Shown: positions 301 through 16,041 of the stretch, piece after piece
How positions within the stretch are numbered: the stretch's first letter is position 1
How the letters are laid out: each line of letters starts with the position of its first letter
Source of the DNA: a virus
Taxonomy: Duplodnaviria; Heunggongvirae; Uroviricota; Caudoviricetes
DNA: 32,586 nucleotides
Reading direction: 5' to 3' (one strand)
IMG/VR virus record: IMGVR_UViG_2690316104_000008
Span: 1 to 32,586 of that record
Translations under genes and position numbers: made by a program
Notes under the pieces: generated by a model
What the model was told of the DNA's origin: nothing
The model's database searches: none
Seen by the model: only the letters and a program-made list of their open reading frames with translations

Positions 301-1464
301 TCACTCATAATCTTCTGTTTCGTACTCCACATCAGAAAGCCTGACCTCAAGCTCCAAGGACGTCGTGAAGCCGCTATTATTCAGAAAATGTGTCACCTTA
401 GTGATTGTCCAGTCCTGCTCGTCTATGACGCGCTTAAAGCCTGACACTCTGACCGGTGTTTCCGTGTAAATATCTGCACGACCGGTAGCCAGGATGATGG
501 AGAACTCCGCAACGCCCCGTTGCAGTTTGTCCCACTTCGCCTGAGCAGCACGCATGGCCTGTGCTTTCGTGGCATATACCGTGGTCAGGGCAAAAACGTT
601 GTCAGCCTCACCGGCCATGTATTCACCTTCGCGCGCTTCCGGTACTTTTGGCGCTTTCTTCTGCCTGACCGGTTTCGCTTTCGGGTGCTCCAGTGCGCGC
701 AGGTGTTTCTCTTTCTTTTTACGTTTCAGTTTTACCTTCTGCTTTTGCGGCTTCGGGTCTTTGGTGTGTAACCACTTTGCCGTTACGCCGGTGTAGGCTC
801 CACGGTCAGCAATCGCAAAATGATGACGGTCGCCGTCGCTGCGGGTGATGGTAATCTGCGGGATTTTTTTACCGCTGGCCGTCACCCCCTGCCCCGCTTT
901 GAGAAACAACAGTTTTCCCATTTTTACCGACACCTCACCGCCGTTGCGTTCAGCAAGGCGGGTCAGGAATTTCGCATCGGACTCCTGCGACTGGTCGATG
1001 TGCGGGATTTTAATTCCGGCCAGTGACGGAGCAACACTGGCTTCCAGCTTGTTACGGGAGGCTATCGCCTCAACAATCGCACCGAGCGTGGTGTCATGCC
1101 ATGAGCCTTCCCGGCGGGAATTGAGCGTCCCGCGAAAATCTGCACTCCGGGCGCGGATGGTGACCACATCCGGCGCGCCCCGGTGTTCAACCTCATCAAC
1201 GGTGAATTTCCCTTTGCATACCAGGGCAAAACCTTTCCAGCCGATATACACCGTCAGGACAGCGCCACGAACCGGCAGCCCGACCTGCCCGTCGGCATCG
1301 TTCAGTTCAATATCAAGCTGGTCAGCCTCAAAGCCCCGGTTATCCGTCAGGGTCATGCTCATCAGACGGTCGCTGATATTGCCGGTAATATCCCTGCTGT
1401 CGAGCATCAGCATGTAATCCGGCGTCAGCGTACTGCCTGCATCAAATGTCAGCGCATCCAGCAT
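301..1464 (-). CDS. D: Tail protein D (late tail gene)
   Basis: 387 aa, same length as P2 gpD; position between ogr and U; basic KPQKQKVKLKRKKKEK linker. Confidence 0.85.
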   Translation of the reverse strand: MLDALTFDAGSTLTPDYMLMLDSRDITGNISDRLMSMTLTDNRGFEADQLDIELNDADGQVGLPVRGAVLTVYIGWKGFALVCKGKFTVDEVEHRGAPDVVTIRARSADFRGTLNSRREGSWHDTTLGAIVEAIASRNKLEASVAPSLAGIKIPHIDQSQESDAKFLTRLAERNGGEVSVKMGKLLFLKAGQGVTASGKKIPQITITRSDGDRHHFAIADRGAYTGVTAKWLHTKDPKPQKQKVKLKRKKKEKHLRALEHPKAKPVRQKKAPKVPEAREGEYMAGEADNVFALTTVYATKAQAMRAAQAKWDKLQRGVAEFSIILATGRADIYTETPVRVSGFKRVIDEQDWTITKVTHFLNNSGFTTSLELEVRLSDVEYETEDYE

Positions 1465-1943
1465 TATCCCGCCCCCGTCATACCCGTGAATTTAGTCGCC
1501 ATACTGCCAGCCTTACCGATGAGCGATTCCGCCTGTTTACCGATATCGCCATAAAGCGCGGCCAGTGATTCATCCACGCGGGTGAGCGACAGCGTAAAAT
1601 CAATTTTCCGGGGTGTGCCGTCTGCAAAGAAAATACTCCCTGTTTCACTCACCCTGCTGATGACATACATGCCGTAAATCATGCCGGAGCCATCCAGCAA
1701 CGGCCACGCCCGGCCTTCCTCTGCCATCAGTCTGAGCGTGGTCATCGTCAGCTTGCCGCCGGTCAGTTCGGGATAAAGCACACCGGCAAGCGTGATGTTT
1801 TCCTCGCCAACACCGAGAAACTGAAAGGCATCCCGTTTACCGATACGGGAATTTGACGGCCAGCGATAATCTGATTCACGCTGCATGGTCTGGTGTGGCA
1901 GCGTCTGGCGCATAAAAACAAACATACCTAACGCGAGCATCAT
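1464..1943 (-). CDS. U: Tail protein U
   Basis: 159 aa as P2 gpU; ATGA start/stop overlap with D; synteny. Confidence 0.85.
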   Translation of the reverse strand: MMLALGMFVFMRQTLPHQTMQRESDYRWPSNSRIGKRDAFQFLGVGEENITLAGVLYPELTGGKLTMTTLRLMAEEGRAWPLLDGSGMIYGMYVISRVSETGSIFFADGTPRKIDFTLSLTRVDESLAALYGDIGKQAESLIGKAGSMATKFTGMTGAG

Positions 1944-1957
1944 TTTTCGTCACCTCC

Positions 1958-4405
1958 TTAACCGTCATGCATCATGCTGGCACGGGCGCGCGCACGTTTA
2001 TCCCGCTCGTATTTTTCGAGCGCATCCTGTAACTGGCGGTCAAGCTGTGTTCCCGGCGCAGTACCGCCCGTCAGGTTGATGTGATATTCGTTTTTACTCT
2101 GGTCCACATAAGAGCGACCAGCCGGTGCCGTGACCGGCTGATAAGCCTGATAGCCTGCATAAGAGCTGGTCGCCGGAATATAACCACCGGTGCCATACGT
2201 GGCGGCATGAGTCCTTGCGGCGGTCTGATCAAGTGTGTCTGACTCTTTGTTGATAACACCGAGTTTTTCCAGTACCCAGTCAATACCGCTGCGCAGTTTG
2301 TTGAACGCATTAAGCGGCAGCATCAACGCGTCAGCCAGTGCCTTCCCGAACATGACACCCGTGTCACGGCAACGGTTCAGGGTGTCCTGGGTGGCTTTGA
2401 CGGGGGCAATCAGGTTTTTAAACCACTGCCACGCGGCCTGTAACTTTTCACCCAGCCAGTCAAACAGCGGCTTAAGTGGCGTGAACAGTTCCCCCACCGG
2501 CGCAAATGCCGCTTTCAGCCCTTCCACCACACCGCCAAAGAATGCGCTGACAGGCTCCCAGTATTTACGGATAAGCAACGCCCCGGCGACAATTGCAGCC
2601 ACCACGGCCACAACCGGCCAGCTAATCGCCCCGATGGCCGTCATAACAGCACTGCCAACCGTCGTGAAGATTGCCCCCATTGCGCCTGCTGCCGCGATGA
2701 TGGCATTGATGCCAGTGATAACCGGCCAGGCTACGAGGCCAATGGCACCGATGACAGCAGTCAGCGCCAGTGCACCACCGACAATGAGGCCGATGGTTGA
2801 CGCCAGTGATTTGTTTTTCTGGATCCAGCCGTCGAGTTTTAACACATACTTTGTGGCCGTCTGCGTGAGCTTACGCAGTGTGCCTTCCTGCTGGTCAAAC
2901 AGGTCAGTCCCCACCGCCTCATAAGCGGACTGAAACTCCTTAAAGTCGCCTCCGAGGTTATCCTGCATGATTTTAACCAGCTCTTCCGTTTTACCGTCCG
3001 AGGCTTTCAGCGTGGCGGTCAGCTTATCCAGTTTTCCGCTTGCTGCCGCTGCCAGTAAAACGTTCGCTGATTTCAGGGCTTCCTCACCAAAAATGGTTTT
3101 AAGGTATTCCCCTTTCTGAGACGTTCCCAGCTTGTGTTTATCAAAGCTGGCCTGAATCTCTTTCAGAATGGTGAACAACGGACGCATATTTCCCTTTTTG
3201 TCCGAGGTTTTAACGCCAAGCTCTTTGAGTGCATCCCATGCTTTTCCAGTCGGTGCCTGTAATCGGGTGACAACGGCGCTACTACCCGTACCCGCCATTG
3301 ACCCCCTGATGTTATTGTCATGCAGCACACCTGTCATGGCCGCTGCCTGCTCAAGACTTACACCTGCCGTCCTCGCAACAGGCCCGAGGTAAGTCAGTGC
3401 ATCACTGAGTCCCTGAAAATCAGCCGCCGACTTATTCATCGTTGCCGACAACACGTCGCCCACATGGCTGACATCATCATTTGACAGTTGAAAGGATGCC
3501 TTAGTCCCCAGCAACAGTTGAGCGTTTTCTTCCATCGACCGCTGATTCGCCAGTGCCATATTCAGCGTGACCGGCGTTGCCGCCTGAATAGCCGCAGCAT
3601 CTCCACCCGCTTTCGCAATGATAATCTGCGCACCGGCCGCATCATCCGCTGAGGCGGCGGTGTTGTCGCCGAGCTGGCGCGCCTGCTTGCGGAGTGCAGC
3701 CATTTCGGCAGAGTCTTTTGCCACACCGAGCACAGCCTGCAATTCCGAGTTTTTCTGCGCAAACTCATAACCGGGCATCAGCAGCTTAACTCCGGCCATC
3801 GTTCCCGCCGCCGCAATCCCCACACCGGCAGCGCCTACTGAGGCCATATTTCCGGCCAGTTCCTTTCCGGCCTGATAACGCTGTTTTACTGCGTTAAGTT
3901 TTGCCTGTTGCGCACTGACACGCGCCAGCGCATCACGCTGACGGTTAAGCTGGGCGGTGGTTTCACTGATACGGTTTTTCAGTCCCTGCTCATCATGTGC
4001 AAGATTGCGGGTATTAATTCCCACAGCGGCCAGTTCCCGCTGCTGGCGTTTAACTGAATCCGTCAGGCGGTTATATTTCGCCTGTAAGTCCTCCGCCGCT
4101 CGCTTTGCTGATTCCAGCACTTTCGCCTGAGCACGGGTCGGACGTTCGGTGTTTTTAAACTGTGTGGCAAGGGCTTCGGCTTCCTGCCGTGCCTTTTCAA
4201 GTGCATGACCAGTCACGGCAAGCTGTGCACTGGTCTTGCGGAATCCCTCAATACGGGATGCCTGACCGTTCAGCTCGCGCAGTGATTTTTGTGTTTCCCG
4301 GATATCCCCCGACAGCGACTTACTCGCTGTGCGGATGGATTTAAACGGGCGGGATGCCTGGTCAACAGCCCTGAGCAATACCTGTAATTTTACATTGTTA
4401 CTCAT
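1958..4405 (-). CDS. T: Tail tape measure protein T
   Basis: 815 aa from MSNNVKLQ; coiled-coil N-terminal half, Gly/Ala-rich hydrophobic centre; start overlaps E' stop; ORF-track start 4432 is an upstream extension. Confidence 0.9.
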   Translation of the reverse strand: MSNNVKLQVLLRAVDQASRPFKSIRTASKSLSGDIRETQKSLRELNGQASRIEGFRKTSAQLAVTGHALEKARQEAEALATQFKNTERPTRAQAKVLESAKRAAEDLQAKYNRLTDSVKRQQRELAAVGINTRNLAHDEQGLKNRISETTAQLNRQRDALARVSAQQAKLNAVKQRYQAGKELAGNMASVGAAGVGIAAAGTMAGVKLLMPGYEFAQKNSELQAVLGVAKDSAEMAALRKQARQLGDNTAASADDAAGAQIIIAKAGGDAAAIQAATPVTLNMALANQRSMEENAQLLLGTKASFQLSNDDVSHVGDVLSATMNKSAADFQGLSDALTYLGPVARTAGVSLEQAAAMTGVLHDNNIRGSMAGTGSSAVVTRLQAPTGKAWDALKELGVKTSDKKGNMRPLFTILKEIQASFDKHKLGTSQKGEYLKTIFGEEALKSANVLLAAAASGKLDKLTATLKASDGKTEELVKIMQDNLGGDFKEFQSAYEAVGTDLFDQQEGTLRKLTQTATKYVLKLDGWIQKNKSLASTIGLIVGGALALTAVIGAIGLVAWPVITGINAIIAAAGAMGAIFTTVGSAVMTAIGAISWPVVAVVAAIVAGALLIRKYWEPVSAFFGGVVEGLKAAFAPVGELFTPLKPLFDWLGEKLQAAWQWFKNLIAPVKATQDTLNRCRDTGVMFGKALADALMLPLNAFNKLRSGIDWVLEKLGVINKESDTLDQTAARTHAATYGTGGYIPATSSYAGYQAYQPVTAPAGRSYVDQSKNEYHINLTGGTAPGTQLDRQLQDALEKYERDKRARARASMMHDG

Positions 4406-4825
4406 TCGTGTTTCCGCTTCGCCGGAGCGCATTTTCGCGCCATGTGATGAGTTCGGTCAGGCTCATGGGATACAGTTCTGATGGCGGCCAGTGAAATATC
4501 ACTGCCACATCCGCCATCAGGTCATCGACCGAGAGATTTTTCGGAAACGTTACTGCACCGAGTTCGGCGACAAAAAACCGACCACCTTACCGGCCAGCGC
4601 CACAAGGTCAGGCAGTTCCAGTGCGGCGACTTCCTGCTCGGTCAGCATCGGTGCCGTCATGCGCGGCAGCACCTTAATCAGTGCATCGACTTCGGAATTT
4701 GCGACCGCAGCCAGACTGACACCGCGCAGCGTCCCGGCGTTAGGTTTCATCAGCGTGACCTGTTCGATAACCTGCTCACCACGTTTGACCGGATTGTCCA
4801 GGGTAATGACGTTTTCTTTGTTCAT
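4398..4825 (-). CDS. E': Tail chaperone E+E' made by programmed -1 frameshift at T_TTT_TTG (minus strand, 4571..4577)
   Basis: GGT TTT TTG heptamer in E frame; the -1 frame stays open to TAA at 4398..4400, giving 142 aa and overlapping the T start codon, as in P2. Confidence 0.75.
4550..4825 (-). CDS. E: Tail assembly chaperone E
   Basis: 91 aa as P2 gpE; directly upstream of T; contains slippery run near its 3' end. Confidence 0.9.
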   Translation of the reverse strand: MNKENVITLDNPVKRGEQVIEQVTLMKPNAGTLRGVSLAAVANSEVDALIKVLPRMTAPMLTEQEVAALELPDLVALAGKVVGFLSPNSVQ

Positions 4826-4881
4826 GGTTTTCTCACTTCTGAATCGGGGTTAACCGGTCAGCCAGGCTGACCGGATGAAAA

Positions 4882-5400
4882 TCACAGGCCGATATTGCGG
4901 CGGTGTTGCTCCAGCCGGTCGACGCCGTTCACCTTCTCAATCATGTTGATGGTGTCGATTTCGACCAGCTCCTTACCGTCCATCGTCAGCCGGAAATAGG
5001 TGCAGACCACGGAGATTTTCGACTCGGTGTCTTCTCCCTGTTTGCCCTCGCCGGTGTCGATTTCTTTCTGACGTCCACGCATGACCACCTCGACGGCCAC
5101 CGTTTCGCCGGTATCGTCGCGCTGGTAAGAGCCTGCAAAACGAATCGGTACGGCATCCACACCGGTTGCGGCGTAAAGCTCCCAGATAACCGAATCCGGG
5201 AAGCCACCGAGCGACCACTCCATTGACAGCGCATCGTCATCAAGGCCGAGGTCTACCGGTGCGCTGCCGTTCATCCCCGCACCGCGATAGTTTTCGAGCT
5301 TACGGGTCAGTTTTGGCAGCGTGACGGACTTCGCGACGCCCTGATAGCTGTAGCCGTTCAGAAAGACGTTCATTAACTTGAGTTTGCGCGGCATTGCCAT
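4882..5400 (-). CDS. FII: Tail tube protein FII
   Basis: 172 aa as P2 FII; follows FI. Confidence 0.9.
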   Translation of the reverse strand: MAMPRKLKLMNVFLNGYSYQGVAKSVTLPKLTRKLENYRGAGMNGSAPVDLGLDDDALSMEWSLGGFPDSVIWELYAATGVDAVPIRFAGSYQRDDTGETVAVEVVMRGRQKEIDTGEGKQGEDTESKISVVCTYFRLTMDGKELVEIDTINMIEKVNGVDRLEQHRRNIGL

Positions 5401-5412
5401 CGGTCAGGCTCC

Positions 5413-6603
5413 TTAATTGCTGTTAACCGAGGTGACCAGATTTGCCAGGTATTTATCGGTAATACGCTGGCGCAGGGTCAGGTTTTCAAGAGGAGGCACC
5501 GGGGTATAGTCGTAGTCGATATACAGTTTTCCGGCCTTGAGGGTTTCCGCATCGTTGGATTCTTCGCTGAACCAGCAGGTCGCATCCACGATATAGCCGT
5601 TTGTTTTCAGCTCACGGAATTTGGCATTGATGCCGTCAACGATGTCGCGAATCAGCGTTGCGGTGATGGGCTTGTCCACCGCCCACATGTGCGCCTCAGC
5701 CATCGTGTCGGCCAGCACCTGCGCGGTGCGGGTGTAGTTTTCAAAGAGGAACAGCGGGTCATCAGAGCAGGTACGGTTACCCCAGAAGCGGAAACCGTCG
5801 CGGCGAATCAGCGTAGTGACGCCTGACTCGTTAAGCAAGTCAGCATCGGTGCCGGACTCCTGCAAATCCCAGAAGACGGATGCGCTGATGCCGGTAACAC
5901 CGTTCACCCCGACATTGGACAGCGTTTTATGCCAGCCCTGCTCCTGGTCGATTTTAGCGCGCAGACCCAGCGCACGGGCGGTGGCATACGCGGTGGCGGT
6001 GGTACTGGTGACCGTATCCCATGCGAGGAAATCCGGCCAGATGACCATCAGCTCACGCTGGCTGAAATTCTGGCGGTAAGCTTTCACCTCGGAAATGGTT
6101 TTACAGCCCCATGCGCTGATATATCCGAAAGCGCGCAGCTTCTGACAGACTGATGCCAGTGCAACAGCCACCTCTTTGGTATCCAGCCCCGGCACACCGA
6201 GAATACGCGGTTTAACACCGGTTATCGACTCCGCCGCCAGCAGGGCTTTTAGTCCGGTGTACTGACCGTTTTCGTCGGTGGTGCCGATGATATTGGAAAC
6301 GGTCTGCGCGAGTTTCGTTTCCTCGTCGTCGCCGGTGCCGTCTTCCACACGCACGACAACGGTGACCGGTTTTGACTGGTCAGCGATGGCCTGCAACGAT
6401 GCAGCCAGCGTGCCTTTTTTACCGGCCTTTGCAATTGCGCTCTGCACATTGGTAATCAGCACCGGTTTATTGATGGGAAAGGTTTCCGCATCCGCATCGC
6501 TGGCCGTGCAGACCATGCCGACAATGGCAGTGGATACGGTGGAAATGACGCGGGTGCCGTCGTTAATCTCCAGCACCTGCACGCCGTGATGATAGTCACT
6601 CAT
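5413..6603 (-). CDS. FI: Contractile tail sheath protein FI
   Basis: 396 aa as P2 FI; synteny. Confidence 0.9.
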   Translation of the reverse strand: MSDYHHGVQVLEINDGTRVISTVSTAIVGMVCTASDADAETFPINKPVLITNVQSAIAKAGKKGTLAASLQAIADQSKPVTVVVRVEDGTGDDEETKLAQTVSNIIGTTDENGQYTGLKALLAAESITGVKPRILGVPGLDTKEVAVALASVCQKLRAFGYISAWGCKTISEVKAYRQNFSQRELMVIWPDFLAWDTVTSTTATAYATARALGLRAKIDQEQGWHKTLSNVGVNGVTGISASVFWDLQESGTDADLLNESGVTTLIRRDGFRFWGNRTCSDDPLFLFENYTRTAQVLADTMAEAHMWAVDKPITATLIRDIVDGINAKFRELKTNGYIVDATCWFSEESNDAETLKAGKLYIDYDYTPVPPLENLTLRQRITDKYLANLVTSVNSN

Positions 6604-6662
6604 CCGTTTAACTCCGTGGTTAATGGGTGAGTGGTATTTTCAGTTGTGCCGGAGATGTCAGG

Positions 6663-7256
6663 CTATTTGTCCCGGTTGGCTAAGGGATGACACAATTTAT
6701 TCTTTGTCGCTGATGAGGGGAATTTTTTATAGAGCGTGGACAGGCCAATATCAAAAATCAGCGCCACACGTTGACGAGATTCCCCCGCAGCCAGCAACCG
6801 TCCGACCTGCTCCCACTCACTCGCGGTGAGTTTCGGACGTCTGCCACCAATACGACCTTTGGCTCTGGCCGCTTCCAGTCCGGCGCGTGTCCGCTCGACA
6901 ATGAGTTCTCGTTCCATTTCAGCCAGGGCACCCATCACATGGAAGAAAAAACGCTCCATCGGCGTGCTGGTATCAATAGCATCCGTCAGGCTGCGAAAAT
7001 TAATGCCGCGTTCGCGCAGTTCCTCAACCAGAATGACCAGATGCCGCATACTACGCCCCAGCCTGTCCAGCTTCCAGACAACCAGAGTGTCACCTTCCGA
7101 TAATGTTCTGAGCAGTTTTTTCAGCCCCGGCCTGTCGGACTTCGTGCCGCTGATTTTATCCTCAAAAATCAGCTCACATCCTGCACACTCCAGCGCATTA
7201 CGCTGCAATTCCGTATTCTGGTCATTTGTTGATACGCGGACATAGCCAATAAGCAT
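6663..7256 (-). CDS. Site-specific DNA invertase, serine recombinase of the Hin/Gin/Cin/Pin family
   Basis: N-terminus MLIGYVRVSTNDQNTELQ with catalytic Ser; resolvase core; C-terminal HTH (GRRPKLTASEWEQVGRLLAAGESRQRVALIFDIGLSTLYKKFP); abuts inverted crossover sites. Confidence 0.9.
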   Translation of the reverse strand: MLIGYVRVSTNDQNTELQRNALECAGCELIFEDKISGTKSDRPGLKKLLRTLSEGDTLVVWKLDRLGRSMRHLVILVEELRERGINFRSLTDAIDTSTPMERFFFHVMGALAEMERELIVERTRAGLEAARAKGRIGGRRPKLTASEWEQVGRLLAAGESRQRVALIFDIGLSTLYKKFPSSATKNKLCHPLANRDK

Positions 7257-7311
7257 GATGGATCCCCTGAATAAAAACCGGGGATGATGCCAGTTATCCG
7301 TAATCTCTGCA

Positions 7312-7337
7312 TTTTCTTAAACGTTGGTTTGGGAGAA
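7312..7337. repeat. Invertase crossover site, left (hix/gix-like); perfect 14-bp arm 7324..7337
   Basis: ttggtttgggagaa at 7324..7337 is the exact reverse complement of ttctcccaaaccaa at 9176..9189. Confidence 0.65.
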
Positions 7338-7679
7338 GCAGCGAAAATGCCTGCTGCGACAGCATTAGCCAGCAGTGCAGGTAACATCACTATTCCAGTA
7401 TTAATTGGTGGAGTACAACGAACAGCATTGCTTCAGTGGAAGACGCTATCAGTGCCGCAATCTACCGACGGTAATATGGTCGTTGTTGATGGCTCATGGC
7501 CGGTTGCCTTTCCTAATGCTTGCCTTTCCATCAATCCTTCGCTGGTCAATTCTGTGATCTACGCGACTAATGGAGCCCCTTTTGTTAGCGCAGCGATTGT
7601 TGACCGGGTCAAATTCAAAGCCGCTTGCGCATACACGAAATCTAATTCAACAGTGGCAGTATGGGGAGTGGGATATTAA
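7338..7679 (+). other. Silent alternative tail-fibre C-terminal cassette (H'), expressed only after inversion
   Basis: Open frame reads through the crossover site as ...VGLGE AAKMPAATALASS..., mirroring ...LGLGE GSALPAG... at the site inside H; no independent start needed. Confidence 0.6.
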
Positions 7680-8122
7680 TGGTCGACTATGTATTCAGCC
7701 CGACGGAAAATGCTTTTTATCTTGTGGCACTGAAATATGATTATTTAACTGCTGGCACATGGCCGTCAGACGGCATCAATATAGATGCTGAAGATGCACT
7801 GGTTTTCATGGGAAACGCTCCTGAGGGTAAAATGCGTGGCATTGGTGATGATGGGTTGCCTTGCTGGGTAGATCTTCCGTCACCTACGCATAAAGAACAA
7901 CTTGCTGCGGCTGACTCAGAGAAAAAGTCGAGAATTGACCATGCCAACGAATACATGAACGGTAAGCAATGGCCTGGTAAAGCAGCTATCGGTCGTCTGA
8001 AAGGTGAGGAACTGGCACAATATAATTTGTGGCTGGATTATCTGGATGCACTGGAAATGGTCGATATTTCCAGTGCTCCAGATATTGAATGGCCTACGCC
8101 TCCGGTAGTTCAGGCCAGATGA
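7679..8122 (+). CDS. Alternative tail fibre assembly protein (Tfa', G-like), inside invertible segment
   Basis: Start overlaps H' stop (TAATG); C-terminal IEWPTPPV motif shared with the minus-strand Tfa (VIWPELPEA); Mu G-segment-like layout. Confidence 0.7.
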   Translation: MVDYVFSPTENAFYLVALKYDYLTAGTWPSDGINIDAEDALVFMGNAPEGKMRGIGDDGLPCWVDLPSPTHKEQLAAADSEKKSRIDHANEYMNGKQWPGKAAIGRLKGEELAQYNLWLDYLDALEMVDISSAPDIEWPTPPVVQAR

Positions 8123-8696
8123 CATCCGGCGCGGTGCTGGTATCTGTTGCCACCACCGCGTCAATGTAATCCAGCACAGCGTTAAGCCGGGTTGTTTCTG
8201 CCTGCGTCAGTTTACGTCCGGCCTGCAATTTCAGCTGAATCAGACTGATGGAAGCCATTGCAGCATCAATCAGTGACTGGCGCTGTGCTTCTGCCGCGTC
8301 TACTGCGGCACCGTGTTGTGCCTCAGTATCTGTCACCCATTTTTCACCATCCCATTTATCGTATGGCGTTAACGTGGCGATAGTGGTTGTTTTTTCGGGG
8401 TAATCACCCGGAGTTGTGATTTCTTTGGCGTCTCCCGTTTCGGTGTTATAGACGATTTCACCGCGATGGTCTGGCACATATTCCCATGAGTTTAAATCTA
8501 TCGAACGGCAGATAGCATAACCAGCCTTATGTGTGCCTGGCGCATCTAAACAGGAACATGCAGGGATACCGACACCCACAGCAAGATATTCATTTGAAGT
8601 GGAAATATATTCCCGGGTTTCACTATCATAGTTATACACTGTAATATTCCCTGCTTTGGTGGCGATAATCTCGCTATTTAATATGGCGTTATCCAT
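8094..8696 (-). CDS. G: Tail fibre assembly protein G (Tfa), currently expressed orientation
   Basis: 200 aa directly downstream of H with ATGA overlap; conserved Tfa C-terminus. Confidence 0.8.
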   Translation of the reverse strand: MDNAILNSEIIATKAGNITVYNYDSETREYISTSNEYLAVGVGIPACSCLDAPGTHKAGYAICRSIDLNSWEYVPDHRGEIVYNTETGDAKEITTPGDYPEKTTTIATLTPYDKWDGEKWVTDTEAQHGAAVDAAEAQRQSLIDAAMASISLIQLKLQAGRKLTQAETTRLNAVLDYIDAVVATDTSTAPDVIWPELPEA

Positions 8697-10015
8697 TATG
8701 CAGCCCTCACAATATAGTTAAATGCAATATTCCTTGGTCGAACCCTAAAACCAGCCCCTGCGCCTGCTCCAGTTGGTGGCAATTCGATAGAGGGGTATGC
8801 TGTTGCAGGGGAATATAAACCTTCACGGGAATCATAATCAGTCGTCATATAGTTAGACGTATTATCAGAAACAGTTTCTGTCGGTCTGGTAACCAGACGA
8901 TAAGAGCCAGTGGTTGATGACCTGACCAGACCAAAACTTTCAACCAGAGTAGCTTTTTGAAAGCTTAATAATCCCCGACCACTGTCAGCTCCGCGCCCAT
9001 CATCCCAGCCACGAATAAACTCACCGCGTAAATCAGGCAGTTTATTTGTCGGATAAGCCTTTGCCAGTTTAGGATATTCAACGGCAGAAAATGCCGCACC
9101 GTTGCATTTCAGCCAGCCTGTTGGCGGAGTGGCGGAAGGCCACGGAACAGGCACACCCGCGGGTAATGCCGAACCTTCTCCCAAACCAAGGTATGCGAGA
9201 AGACCGGCAATATCCTTTCCACTCAAATGAGTCAGCGTCTCATCCAGTGGCTGCTTACCTGACAGCGCATTGTTAATGGTGGTACTGAATTTCGGGTCAT
9301 TGTTAATGGCTGCGGCAATTTCTTTCAGTGTGTCCAGCGTGGCTGGCGCGCCGTTAATCAGAGCGGTAATAGCGGCCTGAACAAACTCAGTGGTCGCAAT
9401 CCGCTTGGTGTTATTTCCTGCGGCAGGCGTCGGCGCTTTTGGTTCTCCGGTAAATGTCGGATTATGTTTCTGCGCATACTGGGTATGAGGATCCTGTGCG
9501 GCAATGTGGTTTCTCATCTGGTCATCCACATACAGCCTTAATTCCAGGACTTCATCATCCACGTATTTACGGGTCGCCAGTACCACCGACGGGTCGATTT
9601 TCAGCGTAATAGCTTCGGTATTCGTGACAACCAGAATCATGCGGATAGTCTGGGTACGACCACTGCCTTCCTGCAACTGCGGTTTGTACGTTTCCGGGCA
9701 GTTCGCCACCGCAATGAGTACGCCTTCATCATCATAAAGCCCAATCTCACGGATCCAGAATCCGCCCTCGTTCTCAGGGATGATTTGCTCCGCAATAATC
9801 TGGCTCTGGTTGTTCGGGTCAACACTCAGAAGATTCAGCGGTGCAATGCGTTTCTGATTAATCAGTTTTGTCTGTGCCGGGTCTGGTGTCGGCAAGACAC
9901 CATTCGCATCACCAACGGCCATTTGCGTCAGATTCAGCTTACTGCCGAGCATCGTCGCGTTAGCCAGCCGTGCTGCGCCCTGATTAGTCAGAATGGCGTA
10001 GTATTTCACTGTCAT
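8696..10015 (-). CDS. H: Tail fibre protein H; constant N-terminal part 9190..10015 fused to variable C-terminal part 8696..9175 in this orientation
   Basis: 439 aa between I and G; crossover site lies inside the coding sequence; Gly-rich C-terminal region. Confidence 0.85.
   Translation of the reverse strand: MTVKYYAILTNQGAARLANATMLGSKLNLTQMAVGDANGVLPTPDPAQTKLINQKRIAPLNLLSVDPNNQSQIIAEQIIPENEGGFWIREIGLYDDEGVLIAVANCPETYKPQLQEGSGRTQTIRMILVVTNTEAITLKIDPSVVLATRKYVDDEVLELRLYVDDQMRNHIAAQDPHTQYAQKHNPTFTGEPKAPTPAAGNNTKRIATTEFVQAAITALINGAPATLDTLKEIAAAINNDPKFSTTINNALSGKQPLDETLTHLSGKDIAGLLAYLGLGEGSALPAGVPVPWPSATPPTGWLKCNGAAFSAVEYPKLAKAYPTNKLPDLRGEFIRGWDDGRGADSGRGLLSFQKATLVESFGLVRSSTTGSYRLVTRPTETVSDNTSNYMTTDYDSREGLYSPATAYPSIELPPTGAGAGAGFRVRPRNIAFNYIVRAA
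9176..9201. repeat. Invertase crossover site, right (inside H)
   Basis: Inverted match to 7312..7337; 14-bp perfect arm 9176..9189. Confidence 0.65.
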
Positions 10016-10623
10016 GCGTTTACTCTCAGGTTATCAATTAAATGAATGGCCGAGGCCGGGAAATAATCCCCTCCGACAATAATGGCCTCCGGGGTGTAGG
10101 GATAAACCGTCAGGGCGTCGCCGTGATAGCATCCCGCACCGGCAAAAATGTTGCCGTTTGTACTTAAACTGATAGCCAGTCCCGTCAGATGGCGGCTTGC
10201 CGGTTTTGCATCAGCAACGAGGCGCTCCAGCTCCTGATACATTTCTTCGGTAATACCCTGCTCAAGCACGCCAACAACGATACGGAACGTCCCCGGCTCC
10301 TCGTTGAGCTGCCACCACTCCCTTACCTCAATCAGATAGCCGAGCGGCTCCACCACACGCCGGATTGCGCCTATAGTGCCCTTATGGCAGTGAATGAAAT
10401 ACGCATCGCGGATAACAGCGCGTTTTGTCGCTTCCGGCCATTTATCATCCCAGCGGTCAACCGAAAATGACCACGCCAGCCACGGCAGCAGATTTGCCGG
10501 GCAGGTATCCGGGTTCCACAGCTCACGAATACTGACCGGCGTTTTTTCAATTTCCGCACAGGCTTTTGCGGCGGCAACTTCAAGCGGTGATGAGCCGGTC
10601 GGCAGCAGTCGCGAATCACTCAT
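10012..10623 (-). CDS. I: Baseplate assembly protein I
   Basis: Synteny between J and H; 203-aa ORF (P2 gpI is about 176 aa, so true start may be internal). Confidence 0.8.
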   Translation of the reverse strand: MSDSRLLPTGSSPLEVAAAKACAEIEKTPVSIRELWNPDTCPANLLPWLAWSFSVDRWDDKWPEATKRAVIRDAYFIHCHKGTIGAIRRVVEPLGYLIEVREWWQLNEEPGTFRIVVGVLEQGITEEMYQELERLVADAKPASRHLTGLAISLSTNGNIFAGAGCYHGDALTVYPYTPEAIIVGGDYFPASAIHLIDNLRVNA

Positions 10624-11524
10624 CCGAGCCTCCGGTCACGACGCGGTATTCGGTACAGAAAGACGCCTGCGTATTGTTGAGCACGATGTCGGCCAGCGGT
10701 GCAGCCAGTTCGACACGCTGCACACCTTCCACATGCAAAGCGGCATAAATGGCAGACAGACGGATGTCGCGCCCCAGCCGGTGCTGTGCCGTGATGTATG
10801 CTTCCAGTTTTTTCACGGCGGCCGCGCGGATGGGTTCGCTTTCGGGACCAGGGTAAAGGTAAAGCGTGGCGTTTATCTGGTATTCAACAATGGCGGCAGA
10901 CTGCACGGTCACGTGGTCGGCCACCGGTCTGACGTCCTCGCCATTCAGGGCGTTACGCACCACGGCCAGCAGGTCTTCGGATGCGATACCGTTATTTTCA
11001 CGTGACAGCACAGAGATGGTGACGCAGGCCGGAGACGGACTGGTGACAGAAATATCGGCGACACGCCCGTCGGCACTGCGTCCATGATACTGATAGGCTC
11101 CCACTGACCCGGCGACGCTTAAGCCCTCAAAAGCCTGCTGAATACGCAGACGATAATCGGTGTCAGATTCCATCACTGCCGGTGTCGGCGGGATAGTCGA
11201 ATCATCTGCCGGGGTGATAATCAGGCGCGTGGTGTTGTAATTGGCACCAATCACATCAAGGTCATTACCGGCGGCACAGGCCAGCATCACCGCCCGTGCG
11301 GCCTCATTCACACGCTGACGCCAGATAAGCTCACGATAAGCATTTTCCTCCAGCAGTTTGACGAGAGGCTCAGATTCCAGCGTCAGGGTACGGGCGACCG
11401 CCTCCTGCTGGTCTTCCGGGTAAAGGGAAATCAGTGTCGCCTTGCGTTCGGCAAGAATGGTTTCAAAGTCCAGCTCCTCGACCACATCCGGTGCGGGTAG
11501 CTGATTCAGGTCGATAATCGGCAT
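10616..11524 (-). CDS. J: Baseplate assembly protein J
   Basis: 302 aa as P2 gpJ; synteny. Confidence 0.9.
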   Translation of the reverse strand: MPIIDLNQLPAPDVVEELDFETILAERKATLISLYPEDQQEAVARTLTLESEPLVKLLEENAYRELIWRQRVNEAARAVMLACAAGNDLDVIGANYNTTRLIITPADDSTIPPTPAVMESDTDYRLRIQQAFEGLSVAGSVGAYQYHGRSADGRVADISVTSPSPACVTISVLSRENNGIASEDLLAVVRNALNGEDVRPVADHVTVQSAAIVEYQINATLYLYPGPESEPIRAAAVKKLEAYITAQHRLGRDIRLSAIYAALHVEGVQRVELAAPLADIVLNNTQASFCTEYRVVTGGSDE

Positions 11525-11528
11525 GGTT

Positions 11529-11876
11529 TCAACTCACAGGAATGGTTAACGAAAGTGGCTGGCCGGTGTCGTTGTGCTGACCGGTTAACGTGACCGTCAT
11601 TCGCCCGTCAAAACTGCGCGCCGTGGTGACGGATGACAGGGTGACGCGGGGTTCCCATTTCAGCACCGCCATGTAACAGGCGACCTTAATCTGCAACTCA
11701 AGCGCCGGGGTCTGCGGCTGGTCAATCATTGATGCCAGCAACGAGCCGTAATCACGACGCATCACCCGTGAGCCGACCGGTGTACGCAGGATATCGCCGA
11801 TACTCTGGCTAATATGCTCAAGGTCAGTGACAGTCAGGCCATCACTGCGATTCATTCCGAGATAACGCGCTGTCAT
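11529..11876 (-). CDS. W: Baseplate wedge protein W
   Basis: 115 aa as P2 gpW; synteny. Confidence 0.9.
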   Translation of the reverse strand: MTARYLGMNRSDGLTVTDLEHISQSIGDILRTPVGSRVMRRDYGSLLASMIDQPQTPALELQIKVACYMAVLKWEPRVTLSSVTTARSFDGRMTVTLTGQHNDTGQPLSLTIPVS

Positions 11877-12508
11877 AGAGGTCCCCCTGTTGTGCCGCCA
11901 CTGTCGCCGGGGTGTTTATGGGTATGCAGTACCTTACCGTTTGATGAGAGTTCACCGCCGGTGTGTTCAATGTTGCCGCGCATCGTCCCGCCCTTCTGCA
12001 CTTCCAGCGTGCCGGTAATCAGCCTGTTGGTGCAGACCACCTCCGGTGTGTCCAGGGTGACGCGGGTTGATGCTTTCACCATGACCACCGGCACCGTGGC
12101 AGTAACAGAATCAGAAGCCGTCACGCTGGCCGTTTTAATTCCGCTTACCGTAAGTGCACTGGTTTCGGGTTCATACTCAATCACCGCCCCGTCAGGGAAA
12201 CGGATATGCAGGGCATCCGCCGACGCAGACGGCGCGTGGTTATCGCCGGAATAAATCCCCGGCAGAACGAATGCCGTGTCGAGTTCACCGCCCACGGCCA
12301 GAATCAGCACCTGTTCCCCCACGGAAGGTGCCCACCATGTGCGCGAACGACCGGCGCGATGGGTCAGCCACTGAAGCCAGTCGGTGCACATGCCGCCGGT
12401 CTGCACACGGCAGCGACCGGCGTTAAGGTCGGTTTCGACGATAATGCCGGTGCGGATCATGTTACGCAGTGCGCGCGCGAGTTCCTGAATATTTGCGAGA
12501 GTGTTCAT
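11873..12508 (-). CDS. V: Baseplate spike/hub protein V
   Basis: 211 aa as P2 gpV; ATGA overlap with W. Confidence 0.9.
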   Translation of the reverse strand: MNTLANIQELARALRNMIRTGIIVETDLNAGRCRVQTGGMCTDWLQWLTHRAGRSRTWWAPSVGEQVLILAVGGELDTAFVLPGIYSGDNHAPSASADALHIRFPDGAVIEYEPETSALTVSGIKTASVTASDSVTATVPVVMVKASTRVTLDTPEVVCTNRLITGTLEVQKGGTMRGNIEHTGGELSSNGKVLHTHKHPGDSGGTTGGPL

Positions 12509-12574
12509 AACGGGAAGGATGCCGCCGGGTCATACCGGCGGCAATGTGACGATGAGGTGTCAGGAATGGCACAA

Positions 12575-13027
12575 CTAACGGTCGAGGTGAGCCAGGATAA
12601 TCTCTTCAATCATCTGCACATCCTCACCGGTAAAGCCGAGCAGAGGACGCGCCGGATAATCAATTTTCTTACCGTCTTTCCGGTTTTCTTCCGACAGACC
12701 GAACTGATGCACACTGGCGATTTTCGGTGACTTCCCGCCGTAAAATTCCATTGATGCCTGCTCCGGGCTGGCGCGGATATGCAAAAAACGACTGGTGATA
12801 AGTTTCGCAAACATTTTTCGCTTAACACGACCGGTCTTTTTTCTGGCGCTCTGCTGCTGGCGTGGCGCGTAGGGTGTGCCGTCCGGGGCTTTCTGAGCCA
12901 TCACCCGACGCTGCTGACTCTGTCGCAGACGTTTTGCCAGTTCGGCGCTCAGTCGCCGACGCCCTGACGGTGACAGCGACTCAATCAGTCCGGTCAGCCG
13001 GTCTTCAAAACGCTTAAACTCATTCAT
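12575..13027 (-). CDS. S: Tail completion protein S
   Basis: 150 aa as P2 gpS; synteny. Confidence 0.85.
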   Translation of the reverse strand: MNEFKRFEDRLTGLIESLSPSGRRRLSAELAKRLRQSQQRRVMAQKAPDGTPYAPRQQQSARKKTGRVKRKMFAKLITSRFLHIRASPEQASMEFYGGKSPKIASVHQFGLSEENRKDGKKIDYPARPLLGFTGEDVQMIEEIILAHLDR

Positions 13028-13487
13028 CCCACTTGCTCACCAGTTCGCCATTGATATAAAGCTCCACCGGGCGGGTGACCGGCTCCGGCGGCGGGGGTTC
13101 CGGGATATTCTTCACATGCAGTGCGCCGTCCACCTCACTGACCAGCGTGCGCTCGGTCAGCATCAGGCTGATGCTGATATCAAAGCTGCTGTCATTGTTG
13201 ATGTCTGCATAAAACGTGAATCCCTTTTTCTGGCCTGCGTCGGTGGTCATGATGTCGGGCTGATTTTCCCGCAGCCACGCCAGCACCGGCACGATGAGCA
13301 GGTCAAAATCACCGGTAAAGTCGGTCACAATCACATTGAGCGTGTAACGCTTTTCGAATGACAGCGACGTCGCCAGTGTGGAGGCAATACTCCCGTTATC
13401 CACGAATATCCGCAGCATATCGGGGTTAGTTTTCAGCACCGTGACGGCATCAGTCAGCGCCCTGCGCAGGCTGTCGGGTTTGAGCAT
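13020..13487 (-). CDS. R: Tail completion protein R
   Basis: 155 aa as P2 gpR; synteny. Confidence 0.85.
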   Translation of the reverse strand: MLKPDSLRRALTDAVTVLKTNPDMLRIFVDNGSIASTLATSLSFEKRYTLNVIVTDFTGDFDLLIVPVLAWLRENQPDIMTTDAGQKKGFTFYADINNDSSFDISISLMLTERTLVSEVDGALHVKNIPEPPPPEPVTRPVELYINGELVSKWDE

Positions 13488-13740
13488 CGTTTTCGTCCTG
13501 ACAGTGTTTAATCATTTTTACCTGGCTGGCACAGCGCGCCAGCGCGTTCTCAAGCTGCCGGATATCGGCACTTAAATCACCGTTCGTCTCCGGGTCACTG
13601 CCCGGCATCGGGCAAAGGCTCACTTTCGGGCAGGCGTTGTGGACAATCACTGGCGTCGGTGCAGGCCGGGCGCTGGTGCAACCGGCGCACAGCATCAGGC
13701 AGGTCAGCACCGTACCAGCGGCGAAAATCTTCGTTCTCAT
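13450..13740 (-). CDS. lysC: LysC, o-spanin (Rz1-like outer-membrane lipoprotein), 96 aa, overlapping lysB out of frame
   Basis: MRTKIFAAGTVLTCLMLCAGC lipobox signal; Pro-rich mature part; overlaps the lysB 3' end and extends past it. Confidence 0.7.
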   Translation of the reverse strand: MRTKIFAAGTVLTCLMLCAGCTSARPAPTPVIVHNACPKVSLCPMPGSDPETNGDLSADIRQLENALARCASQVKMIKHCQDENDAQTRQPAQGAD

Positions 13741-14020
13741 TAAGTAACCTCGTGATGGTTTTCTCGCGCTGTGCTTCACGCTTCGCGGCGTTCTCCAGTT
13801 CCTGACGCAGTGCCACCTGCGCCAGCTCGTTTTTGTCTGCCCTGGTAAGGGCAACATGAAGCTGGTTTTTCAGCATGGTGATGGTCGTCTGCTGTTCACT
13901 GGCGACGTTGTTCGCCCTGTCCAGCGAGGCGCGCAGGCTGGCGTTTTCATGCTTTGCCAGAAACAGCCCCGCCACCGCCAGCGATAACAACACGACCAGC
14001 ACAATCATCAGCTTTGACAT
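13595..14020 (-). CDS. lysB: LysB, i-spanin (Rz-like)
   Basis: 141 aa; N-terminal transmembrane helix then coiled-coil periplasmic domain; synteny. Confidence 0.8.
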   Translation of the reverse strand: MSKLMIVLVVLLSLAVAGLFLAKHENASLRASLDRANNVASEQQTTITMLKNQLHVALTRADKNELAQVALRQELENAAKREAQREKTITRLLNENEDFRRWYGADLPDAVRRLHQRPACTDASDCPQRLPESEPLPDAGQ

Positions 14021-14433
14021 AATTCCCGCCCCTCAAGACGCTGACGACAGGCTTTACGTATCAGCCGGAAGAACACCGACGCCACGAGATAAATCAGCGC
14101 GGTAAAAATCCACCCGGCGGCGACCAGCGCGATAAACGTCGCCACCATCACCACCAGAGCCGCCGCCCGTCTGCGCCACGGCACCGGCTGCAAAAACAGC
14201 GCCGTGACAATCTTCACGGCCAGCGATTCCGGCGGCAGCTCCCGCCCGTAGCGTTCCAGCACATACTCAGTGGCATACACGCCGACACCACCGGCAACCA
14301 CACAGATAACCGTCGCCAGAATCGCCCAGGCAGCGACAAAACTGACGGCCACGCTCTGCGGGTAAATCAGGGACAGTGCCAGCATCAGCGCCAGCGACAC
14401 GTTCAGCATCAGTGAAAGGGATAATTTCTTCAT
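14008..14433 (-). CDS. lysA: LysA, lysis timing membrane protein
   Basis: 141 aa, several predicted transmembrane helices; between K and lysB. Confidence 0.75.
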   Translation of the reverse strand: MKKLSLSLMLNVSLALMLALSLIYPQSVAVSFVAAWAILATVICVVAGGVGVYATEYVLERYGRELPPESLAVKIVTALFLQPVPWRRRAAALVVMVATFIALVAAGWIFTALIYLVASVFFRLIRKACRQRLEGRELCQS

Positions 14434-14447
14434 GGTGTTTACTCCGT

Positions 14448-14945
14448 TTAAGCCGGTACGCCGCCGGCGGTACGCCAGACGGTGACCAGTTTTTCCAGTG
14501 AATGCTCACGCTGACCGTAACCGGCACCCGGCAGGGACGCCCAGATATTGCGACAGCGTGAAATGGCGCGCTCAATGCGTCCCGCCCGGATGTCATCCAG
14601 TGCACCGCGTTCGCGGATCAACTGAATGGCGAGCCTGTCCTGTGACAACGGACTGAAATCCGGCAGGGCAAGCTGTTTGCGGTAATGCGGCCAGAACAGG
14701 TAAAGCTGCTGATAGCGACCGGAGGCCGTGGATTTTTCACCGCGACGGTTAAACACCTTCGCCGGTCGGCCATGCGCGAACGGGTGGTCACTGTAGTCGG
14801 TGAAAATTTCCGGCTTCCCGTCCAGTCCGGTGACTATCACGTCATAGCCCCGGTTTTTCGTCAGCGGATGATTCGCCGTCCCTTCGGACACGGCCAGCAT
14901 GTCGAGAAAGGCGGCGATATTCTGATGCGTGTTAATTACCGGCAT
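14448..14945 (-). CDS. K: Endolysin K (lysozyme-like)
   Basis: 165 aa as P2 gpK; follows holin; synteny. Confidence 0.85.
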   Translation of the reverse strand: MPVINTHQNIAAFLDMLAVSEGTANHPLTKNRGYDVIVTGLDGKPEIFTDYSDHPFAHGRPAKVFNRRGEKSTASGRYQQLYLFWPHYRKQLALPDFSPLSQDRLAIQLIRERGALDDIRAGRIERAISRCRNIWASLPGAGYGQREHSLEKLVTVWRTAGGVPA

Positions 14946-15226
14946 TACTGTTTCCCCCTGCCCTTAAAGCGGCGCTGAATGGCAATCTCAATCACCTGAT
15001 AACCGGCGATACCCAGCATGGAGCCGATGCCGCACACCGCAGGCAGTGACAGGTCAGGAAACTGCACCAGAACAACACCGGCAACCATCGAGACAAAACC
15101 ACCGAGCAACATGCGCCCGATAAACAGACGCGGGGTGATGGGTTCACCACCGGCAAGCACCTTGCCGACAACAATCAGCACCCCAATCATGAAAAGCGAC
15201 AGGACGCTTTTTTCTTCTGCTGTCAT
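14945..15226 (-). CDS. Y: Holin Y
   Basis: 93 aa, hydrophobic helices with charged C-terminus RRFKGRGKQ; synteny. Confidence 0.85.
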   Translation of the reverse strand: MTAEEKSVLSLFMIGVLIVVGKVLAGGEPITPRLFIGRMLLGGFVSMVAGVVLVQFPDLSLPAVCGIGSMLGIAGYQVIEIAIQRRFKGRGKQ

Positions 15227-15229
15227 GCG

Positions 15230-15433
15230 TTACTCCCACAGATTGACAGTTTCAGCCACGGGCGCGGTCTGAACGTCGGGCAGTTCGACGGCGGTGCCGT
15301 GTGGCAGCACCGCGCCCAGTTCAGCCAGTCCCGGATTTGCGGCGAGCACGGTCTCAACCACGCCCTCAGTGCGCCCGTAATACCGGACACAAATGGCGTC
15401 GAGCGTGTCGCCCTGTAGCGCAAAGGTCTTCAT
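15230..15433 (-). CDS. X: Tail protein X, 67 aa
   Basis: Internal start MKTFALQGDTLDAICVRYYG gives P2 gpX length; start overlaps L stop by 1 nt. Confidence 0.8.
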   Translation of the reverse strand: MKTFALQGDTLDAICVRYYGRTEGVVETVLAANPGLAELGAVLPHGTAVELPDVQTAPVAETVNLWE

Positions 15434-15942
15434 CAGATTTGACTCACGATGCAGCGCGGCTTGTCCTGGATACGCGCCACCGCCCAGCGCATATCCCGCC
15501 ACAGCTCATCAATGGTGCTGTCAATGCTGTCGGCCTTCTTGTCGCCTTTCGCACTGGCATCCACGCCGCGGTAACGCTCATAAAGCGACGCGGTCGCCAT
15601 CGCACACACGGCGCGCTCGTAGTAAAAAACTTTGATGCTTTCACCGTCGATGTCGTCCGCCGGAACGTCCACCAGACGCGTAAAACCGGCGGCAATTTTC
15701 TGTTCGCGGTACTCGTACAGCTCCGCATTCGTCTCCGCCATGCCTGACTTGATAGCCTCACGCAGACGGGCGGGGGCGACGGTCTGCTCAAGGCGCATAC
15801 GTTCCCGGACGCGCTTCGGGTCGATATCGGGAAAAAAGAACGTGTTTTTAATCACCGGCTCGTCGCCTGCCGGTTGCGGGATGACCACCGTACCCTCACC
15901 GGACACGGGAGCCTCCTTTCGCGGAATAATCAGCGTCATCAT
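15433..15942 (-). CDS. L: Head completion/stabilisation protein L, 169 aa
   Basis: From MMTLIIPRK, matching P2 gpL length; synteny. Confidence 0.85.
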   Translation of the reverse strand: MMTLIIPRKEAPVSGEGTVVIPQPAGDEPVIKNTFFFPDIDPKRVRERMRLEQTVAPARLREAIKSGMAETNAELYEYREQKIAAGFTRLVDVPADDIDGESIKVFYYERAVCAMATASLYERYRGVDASAKGDKKADSIDSTIDELWRDMRWAVARIQDKPRCIVSQI

Positions 15943-16041
15943 GACTACCTCTGAAAAGTCGGGCGGTGGACGCCGGTGCAGTGTCAGGTGATTCACCCTC
16001 ACTGACCGGCGTGCCGCCCTGGCGCGGGGCGCATTCGGTTG

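Follow-up and report, generated by a model that had tools for sequence, protein, structure and literature searches.

Does the DNA lying between the tail-fibre genes and FI of this P2-like prophage constitute a switch of host range, and is such a switch still in operation? The locus was examined in the window, namely, the whole stretch of 32,586 nucleotides that was analysed, and its features are collected in Table 1. We read it as a tail-fibre (host-range) switch that has two states and is driven by an invertase, of the same type as Mu G, P1 C, and e14 P and carried by a P2-like prophage, and would put the probability of this reading at roughly 0.87. An earlier note on this DNA had implied novelty, but the same arrangement is widespread among prophages of E. 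coli, has already been published (PMC4272514; bioRxiv 10.1101/2024.10.15.618418), and hence is not new.

Position of the module in a P2-like genome

The phage is P2-like, as was proposed in the earlier note: in the genome alignment, P2 and the window are collinear over most of the length at 94–98% identity, and the window segments 1–6683, 10187–12508, 12573–21943, and 25880–29817 are 94.6–97.6% identical to P2. The cargo is flanked by the tail-fibre genes and FI (5413–6603) in the collinear gene order of P2, which places it in the Z/fun hotspot of P2-like phages (Peduovirus); this hotspot often encodes a DNA invertase, with the adjacent genes inverted (bioRxiv 10.1101/2024.10.15.618418). The invertase indeed sits in the P2 Z/fun slot, as the note had stated, and the start codon of FI is located 59 bp beyond its stop codon, but the replacement is wider than that slot; namely, P2 12630–17571, which comprises the 3′ end of gene I together with H, G, and Z/fun, is swapped for window 6684–10186. 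In P2 itself, H (669 aa) and G are single and fixed, Z/fun is on the opposite strand, and neither an invertase nor crossover sites are present, whereas FI and its promoter pF are kept in the window and the remaining genome is collinear.

By alignment with P2 pF, the equivalent of the Ogr activator site is positioned at 6672–6700 and that of the transcription start at around 6627–6629. The last ~12 codons of the invertase gene fall within this region, the homology to P2 being back from window 6683; judging from the annotation of P2, the region would be expected to function as pF in the window as well.

Table 1. Features of the invertible tail-fibre locus (positions in the window)
Feature	Position	Strand	Basis
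Serine DNA invertase, Gin/Pin/Hin/Cin type, 197 aa	6663..7256	-	Pfam, PDB, comparison with e14 PinE and Mu Gin
Putative P2-type late promoter pF for FI operon	6627..6700	-	Alignment with annotated P2 pF region
Candidate Fis-dependent recombinational enhancer, inside 5′ end of invertase gene	7172..7235	-	Two G-N13-C Fis-like cores
Left (invertase-proximal) 26-bp crossover site, TTTTCTTAAACG-TT-GGTTTGGGAGAA	7312..7337	.	Repeat search, consensus scan
Alternative tip H′c, 113 aa + stop, silent in present orientation	7338..7679	+	In-silico inversion
Tfa′ chaperone for H′c, 147 aa	7679..8122	+	Caudo_TAP, 2.3e-29
Tfa chaperone for Hc, 200 aa	8094..8696	-	Caudo_TAP, 1.5e-30
Variable tip Hc, present orientation, 159 aa + stop	8696..9175	-	Collar domain PF07484, 1.5e-14
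Right 26-bp crossover site, TTCTCCCAAACC-AA-GGTATGCGAGAA, within gene H	9176..9201	.	Repeat search, consensus scan
Constant N-terminal part of H, 280 aa	9176..10015	-	Phage_tail_fib N-terminal domain, 1.6e-62; shared prefix of both products

Invertase, crossover sites, and candidate enhancer

The invertase gene is placed outside the invertible segment. Its product contains the Resolvase (PF00239, 1.1e-51, residues 3–135) and HTH_7 (PF02796, 5e-13, residues 138–181) domains, matches the crystal structures of Mu Gin (3uj3/4m6f) at 6e-93, and is 77% identical to Mu Gin, which agrees with its previous assignment to the Hin/Gin family; the identity is 85% to e14 PinE and 98% to the counterpart in an O157 P2-like prophage. 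The active-site residues Y5, R7, S9, R42, D64, R65, and R68 are present and align with those of Gin. For comparison with Hin, we assume that the residue number in the window protein equals the Hin number minus 1, an offset cross-checked against Gin. On that basis, the invertase-specific residues that touch Fis and the enhancer in Hin (K47, K/R48, K/R51; Q151, R154, L155; PMC3798978) are in place as K46/K47/R50 and Q150/R153/L154. The protein thus combines the two-domain layout of ~180–200 aa, the catalytic residues, and the Fis-contact residues of the Fis/enhancer-dependent “Din” family. Furthermore, changes at positions 106 and 114 render Gin/Hin Fis-independent; the invertase agrees with wild-type Gin at both (H106 and M114; crystallised Gin 3uj3 has V at 114), and this argues for its dependence on Fis.

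The longest inverted repeat in 5000–11000 is formed by the arms 7312–7338 and 9175–9201 (27 nt, 81% complementary), which hold two 26-bp, imperfectly palindromic sites with the same central dinucleotide in inverted orientation, TT in the left and AA in the right. The sites agree at 21 of 26 positions, and the inner 14 bp is perfect, as described previously, or 15 bp when 7338/9175 is included. When the whole window was scanned for the hix-type consensus TTCTCNNAAACCAAGGTTTNNGAGAA with three or fewer mismatches, only the two sites proposed in the earlier note were hit, compared with none in 100 shuffles; a third crossover site, which would make the locus shufflon-like as in EPEC or p15B Min, was not found in the window at this threshold. 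The right site, which codes for ...LLAYLGLGE within H, has a single mismatch to the consensus, and the left site has two, namely, C for G beside the core and GAAAA for GAGAA. These deviations of the left site are also present in the sites of e14 and O157, which do invert; indeed, the pinE-proximal site of e14 is identical to the left site at 25 of 26 positions. The segment thus bounded measures 1,864 bp between the cores, 1,838 bp when the sites are left out, and 1,890 bp when they are included, in line with the previous estimate of about 1.87 kb.

Two Fis-like cores, which are simple matches to the motif G-N13-C, were located early in the coding sequence of the invertase at 7221–7235 (+29) and 7172–7186 (+78) and might constitute the enhancer. 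Both cores are kept in Mu gin and e14 pinE, with which this stretch is collinear. The Fis sites in hin are spaced by 48 bp; no Fis sites with exactly this spacing were found, the distance between the cores being 49 bp in each of the window, e14, and Mu, so that the register of the motif is uncertain. The candidate spans 64 bp, its proximal core is separated from the left-site centre by 96.5 bp, and it is comparable to the enhancer of Hin, which is 65 bp long, has a Fis site at each end, and is located ~100 bp from hixL (PMC3798978). The conservation of the cores among the window, Mu gin, and e14 pinE is also explicable by coding constraint alone.

A constant part of H and two alternative tips

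In the present orientation, H (8696–10015, minus strand) is a protein of 439 aa. Because the right site is inside H, the constant part of 280 aa is joined to either tip, and the in-silico inversion indeed gave an in-frame H of 393 aa, in which the first 280 residues were unchanged and followed by a tip of 113 aa. A close relative, E. coli MS20653, encodes this flipped H of 393 aa with 387 identical residues. The tips share no sequence relationship and are assigned to separate Pfam families, Collar for Hc and Gp53-like_C (PF21882) for H′c, the latter being a weak match (3.8e-05) just below the curated cut-off; Hc is 58% identical to e14 StfE. Each chaperone begins at the stop codon of its own tip, and the start codon of Tfa′ overlaps the stop codon of H′c (TAATG). 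The tfa and tfa′ genes converge with a 29-bp overlap, between which no terminator was found, and Tfa and Tfa′ are 89.5% and 49% identical to e14 TfaE and TfaP, respectively. A crossover site inside the fibre gene with in-frame alternative tips, each with its own chaperone, is what is expected of a tail-fibre switch; the previous description of H as a constant region leading into two C-termini, both of which are followed by their own Tfa, was therefore correct.

Mechanistically, dimers of the 197-aa invertase would bind both 26-bp sites, and host Fis, bound to an enhancer that the invertase gene carries in its first ~100 bp, would allow an invertasome to form on supercoiled DNA. The resulting tetramer would cleave both sites at the central AA/TT, turn by 180 degrees, and religate the strands, leaving 1,864 bp inverted. 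The constant part of H is presumably responsible for attachment to the baseplate; it would carry the StfE-like collar tip of 159 aa in the present orientation, with Tfa being co-transcribed, and the gp53-like tip of 113 aa, with Tfa′, in the flipped one. As H can be joined to either tip, the virions released from a population of lysogens would carry either of the two receptor-binding tips. The host range is expected to differ between the orientations, and the phage could hedge between two receptors, as is known for Mu, P1, and other P2-like prophages. Also, the invertase may act in trans on further invertible segments of the host.

All parts of the Mu G-like arrangement proposed in the earlier note are present. 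Indeed, Mu G/Gin and P1 C/Cin likewise have a constant N-terminus of the fibre (Sc), alternative C-termini (Sv/Sv′), and chaperones (U/U′), with the invertase just outside the segment and the enhancer in its own 5′ end (a candidate in the window). In terms of sequence, however, the module is most closely related to the e14 P segment with PinE rather than to Mu G with Gin, given the identity of the invertase (85% versus 77%), that of TfaE (89.5%), and the left site (25/26). The fibre and chaperone proteins in the window have no similarity to Mu S/U at E below 1e-3, and the segment of Mu/P1 is longer (3 kb); also, the core of gix in Mu is not AA, and the hix-type scan hence gives no site in Mu. 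The e14 element, a cryptic prophage of E. coli K-12 (stfP/tfaP/tfaE/stfE/pinE), shares with the window the gene order and logic as well as the convergent tfa genes with the same 29-bp overlap, but it is a lambdoid relic and not a P2-like phage and has another constant part of the fibre and another second cassette, with StfP being 29% identical to the alternative fusion in the window. Loci in the same place between I/H and FI are found in P2-like prophages of E. coli (O157:H7, pro483, 500465-1, KC618326, and EPEC E2348/69) and are annotated alike as a tail protein, two tail fibre assembly proteins, and a recombinase; three sites are present in one of the EPEC prophages, which is shufflon-like, as opposed to two in the locus of the window. 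In Salmonella, Fels-2 with Fin is another invertible tail-fibre locus of a P2-like prophage.

Orientation in relatives and activity of the switch

In the window itself, one assembled orientation is seen, and the orientation in relatives was assessed from the full-length matches listed and from a direct comparison of O157:H7 strains TW14359 and EC4115. The flanks of these two strains are 100% identical, and the segment is 99.95% identical in inverted orientation; their difference is an inversion of exactly the segment homologous to that in the window, where the direct and inverted alignments overlap by 15–18 bp at the sites, corresponding to window 7324–7338. Among the matches listed, at least 33 O157-type genomes have the orientation of the window and at least 22 have the flipped one. 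Experimentally, e14 flips in K-12 cultures, and the P2-like prophages of EPEC E2348/69 were shown to undergo phase variation by inversion (PMC4272514). As a side note, the counts obtained with 251-bp junction queries across complete E. coli genomes are unreadable as an orientation ratio, because the StfE-like cassette occurs in many unrelated prophages including e14 and because partial matches share the same identity bands.

Could such differences among genomes be caused not by the invertase but by RecA-dependent homologous recombination at the inverted repeats or by misassembly? Homologous recombination also inverts DNA between inverted repeats, and assemblers can be misled by short ones; nonetheless, the perfect shared stretch is just 15 bp, which is much shorter than RecA needs for efficient recombination. 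The breakpoints, furthermore, fall on 26-bp sites of the hix/pix consensus with identical cores, and both orientations are recurrent in dozens of independent complete genomes. Inversion at such loci has also been confirmed by PCR and sequencing (PMC4272514), and we consider this explanation very improbable. It is less far-fetched, albeit still unlikely, that the parts are intact but inversion no longer proceeds at a meaningful rate, for example, owing to weak expression of the invertase or the suboptimal left site, in which case the StfE-like tip would always be made. The single orientation in the window and the two consensus mismatches in the left site would fit this situation; also, no strong sigma-70 promoter was predicted 5′ of the invertase, with promoter and terminator scans over 6400–10200 giving nothing reliable above background, and decay does occur in the lineage, as the invertase of the related phage KC618326 is frameshifted (164 aa). 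The invertase ORF in the window is, in contrast, of full length with all of the catalytic and Fis-contact residues, the ORFs of both the silent cassette and its chaperone are intact, and the same left site is present in elements found in both orientations. To us, the switch is probably active in this phage.

A further proposal, which we regard as improbable, concerns wiring and cargo; namely, expression of the invertase and hence switching might be tied to the late transcription of P2, and the 113-aa tip might be a rare receptor-binding module. As the 3′ end of the invertase ORF extends into the Ogr-dependent pF and no terminator is found between the tfa genes, switching could follow this late transcription, and pF could conversely be modulated when the invertase is transcribed. 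Parts of the module are present in thousands of E. coli genomes. H′c beside the invertase, counted where 80% or more of the junction query was covered, was found in only 12 complete genomes of E. coli, and H′c differs from the cassette in O157. Even if this proposal is true, the classification of the element as an invertase-driven tail-fibre switch would be unchanged.

With respect to annotation, H is best marked as phase-variable, and the “hypothetical” ORF at 7284–7679 would represent a silent tail-fibre tip and not a separate gene. Such fragments are labelled “hypothetical” or “gp53-like” by PGAP, or H is labelled as a pseudogene in flipped genomes.

Structure of the invertible segment

An invertase-driven tail-fibre switch had been proposed in the earlier note at the place of P2 Z/fun (6663-9201), and all of its features were found at the positions assigned to them (table). 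In a repeat search of 5000-11000, the longest inverted repeat had arms of 27 nt (7312-7338 and 9175-9201; 81% complementary), which hold the two 26-bp crossover sites. These sites agree at 21 of the 26 positions, with the same central dinucleotide and in inverted orientation, and the perfect 14-bp arm that had been noticed is indeed their inner 14 bp (15 bp with the next base). When the whole 32.6-kb window was searched with a hix-type consensus allowing up to 3 mismatches, only these two sites matched, and zero matches were obtained in 100 shuffles. The core-to-core distance is 1,864 bp.

Features of the switch module, the P2-like backbone and the old/tin hotspot
Feature	Position	Strand	Details
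P2 backbone, ogr to FI	1-6683		P2 24254-17572; 94.6% identity
Serine invertase	6663-7256	-	197 aa; resolvase catalytic domain 1.1e-51, HTH_7 domain 5e-13
Candidate Fis-like G-N13-C core, distal	7172-7186		GTGCAGGATGTGAGC
Candidate Fis-like G-N13-C core, proximal	7221-7235		GTATCAACAAATGAC
Left 26-bp site	7312-7337		TTTTCTTAAACG-TT-GGTTTGGGAGAA
Tfa' chaperone	7679-8122	+	Caudo_TAP 2.3e-29
Tfa chaperone	8094-8696	-	Caudo_TAP 1.5e-30
Gene H	8696-10015	-	439 aa; P2-type N-terminal fibre domain 1.6e-62, C-terminal collar domain
Right 26-bp site	9176-9201		TTCTCCCAAACC-AA-GGTATGCGAGAA
P2 backbone, I to V	10187-12508		P2 12629-10308; 94.9% identity
P2 backbone	12573-21943		P2 9369-1; 97.6% identity
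GHKL-type ATPase	22172-23638	+	PF13589 1e-09
Methyltransf_35 protein	23635-24627	+	PF20553 3e-84
C5 cytosine DNA methylase	24578-25729	-	PF00145 8.6e-58; PADLOC MTase_II 8e-95
P2 backbone	25880-29817		P2 30234-26297; 96.6% identity

The right site lies within gene H, where it encodes ...LLAYLGLGE. The constant region of H was expected to read into either of two C-termini, and inverting 7325-9188 in silico left H open over 393 aa, with the first 280 residues kept and the last 113 supplied by the plus-strand ORF 7338-7679. Each C-terminus is also followed by its own chaperone, and in both cases the tip's stop codon and the chaperone's ATG share bases (TAATG); the tfa and tfa' genes are convergent with a 29-bp overlap.

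Natural inversion in related prophages

While the window itself represents a single orientation, Escherichia coli O157:H7 TW14359 and EC4115 share a prophage at one chromosomal location, with flanks that are 100% identical (2,235 and 2,341 bp) and a middle piece of 1,908 bp that is inverted (99.95% identical). Where direct and inverted alignments meet, they have 15 and 18 bp in common; the left one of these stretches corresponds to the perfect arm (window 7324-7338). Identical protein accessions are annotated on opposite strands in the two strains. When complete E. coli genomes were searched with the window and with its in-silico flipped sequence, the O157-type sets were disjoint; among the O157-type matches listed, at least 33 were oriented as in the window and at least 22 were flipped. 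Nearest to the window are 2023CK-01509, a strain that shares its orientation, and MS20653, a flipped strain whose H (393 aa) is identical to the predicted flipped product at 387 of 393 residues. Inverted relatives with breakpoints at the sites are thus known, and inversion at these sites therefore recurs naturally in this family of elements. As for the window copy, its intact parts suggest that it may itself be active.

In flipped genomes such as EC4115 (locus positions 3752-4951), PGAP splits H into a truncated pseudogene and a distinct "gp53-like domain-containing protein", but from the H start codon the frame continues without a stop over 399 aa, and the call seems to be an artefact that arises in annotating invertible fibre genes. 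The silent cassette of the window (7348-7844) finds no counterpart at the DNA level in the O157 P2-like prophage, whereas the flanks and the other cassette match; among complete E. coli genomes, this cassette adjoins the invertase in only 12, counting matches over at least 80% of the junction query. Crossover sites of such elements are known as joints for cassette exchange, and the difference fits an exchange of this kind.

Invertase and candidate enhancer

The assignment to the Hin/Gin family was borne out by the domains and by matches to the Mu Gin crystal structures 3uj3 and 4m6f (6e-93, residues 1-182). Identity of the invertase is 77% with Gin, 85% with e14 PinE and 98% with its counterpart in the O157:H7 P2-like prophage, and all of the active-site residues (Y5, R7, S9, R42, D64, R65, and R68) are there. 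Gin and Hin become Fis-independent through changes at positions 106 and 114; the window invertase has the wild-type Gin residues H106 and M114, while the crystallised Gin 3uj3 has V at 114, and a need for Fis would therefore be expected. Furthermore, Hin K47, K/R48, K/R51, Q151, R154, and L155, which Fis/enhancer-dependent invertases conserve and resolvases do not (McLean et al., PMC3798978), have the counterparts K46, K47, R50, Q150, R153, and L154.

Over its first 100 bp, the invertase gene can be aligned gap-free to Mu gin and e14 pinE, and both Fis-like G-N13-C cores are kept in all three. The two cores span 64 bp with a spacing of 49 bp by the motif used, and the proximal one is 96.5 bp away from the left site, measured to its centre; the Hin enhancer is 65 bp with Fis sites at both ends and lies about 100 bp from hixL (PMC3798978). 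This is consistent with, albeit not proof of, an enhancer in the 5' stretch of the gene, which is coding sequence.

At its other end, homology to P2 restarts at 6683 within the invertase ORF, and the last ~12 codons (KLCHPLANRDK; 6666-6700) lie over the stretch equivalent to the Ogr activator site in P2 pF, with a half-site-like TTGTG and a TTAGCCAACC stretch retained at the P2 spacing. The invertase is 13 residues longer than PinE because the ORF end runs into this P2-like pF region; its stop codon is only 59 bp ahead of the FI start codon, flush with the FI operon.

Known switches and the P2-like backbone

The earlier observation is confirmed and its interpretation supported; the module is an ordinary representative of the invertible tail-fibre switches, of a kind described before. 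By sequence comparison its nearest known counterpart is the e14 P segment: identity is 89.5% between Tfa and TfaE, 58% between the expressed tip and StfE and 49% between Tfa' and TfaP, the left site agrees at 25 of 26 positions, and tfaP and tfaE converge with exactly the same 29-bp overlap. Mu G and P1 C resemble the module in mode of action; no similarity to Mu was detectable in the fibres and chaperones. In Salmonella, the P2-like prophage Fels-2 has the Fin invertase, which is reportedly active and able even to drive hin inversion (Kutsukake et al. 2006). Many records of P2-like phages annotate this architecture at the corresponding position of the genome (among others, KC618326, pro483, 500465-1/-2, Salmonella phage MET_P1_103_31, and Klebsiella phages), and parts of the module were matched in 3,303 of the 5,426 complete E. 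coli genomes. Two P2-like prophages of EPEC E2348/69, as well as e14, were found to phase-vary reproducibly by inversion, which was read as alternation of tail-fibre C-termini (Goldberg et al., PMC4272514). Also, the P2 Z/fun hotspot often encodes a DNA invertase with adjacent genes inverted (2024 phage-hotspot preprint, 10.1101/2024.10.15.618418). In the related phage KC618326, the invertase (3155-3649 of its locus; 164 aa) diverges in the C-terminal part, probably from a frameshift, and the crossover sites (3721-3746 and 5582-5607) are identical to each other; that switch may be decayed or fixed.

As a P2-like prophage, the window runs opposite to the P2 map, and alignment to P2 left four blocks without homology, namely 6684-10186, 12509-12572, 21973-25879, and 29818-32586. 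The switch module sits in the first, where 3.5 kb stands in place of 4.9 kb of P2 (12630-17571). The proposed Z/fun position hence holds in that the block covers Z/fun, but the replaced stretch also takes the 3' end of gene I, H, and G. At 12509-12572, only 64 bp is present in place of the slot that holds orf30 in P2, between S and V (9370-10307 of P2). The early, immunity and integrase end (29818-32586) resembles P2 in short patches only, at 67-70% identity; the immunity and integrase module therefore differs from that of P2, as presumably does the attachment site. At the old/tin hotspot (21973-25879), the GHKL-type ATPase and the Methyltransf_35 protein had no match in PADLOC; together with the C5 methylase, these genes could be methylase-associated defence or restriction-like cargo.
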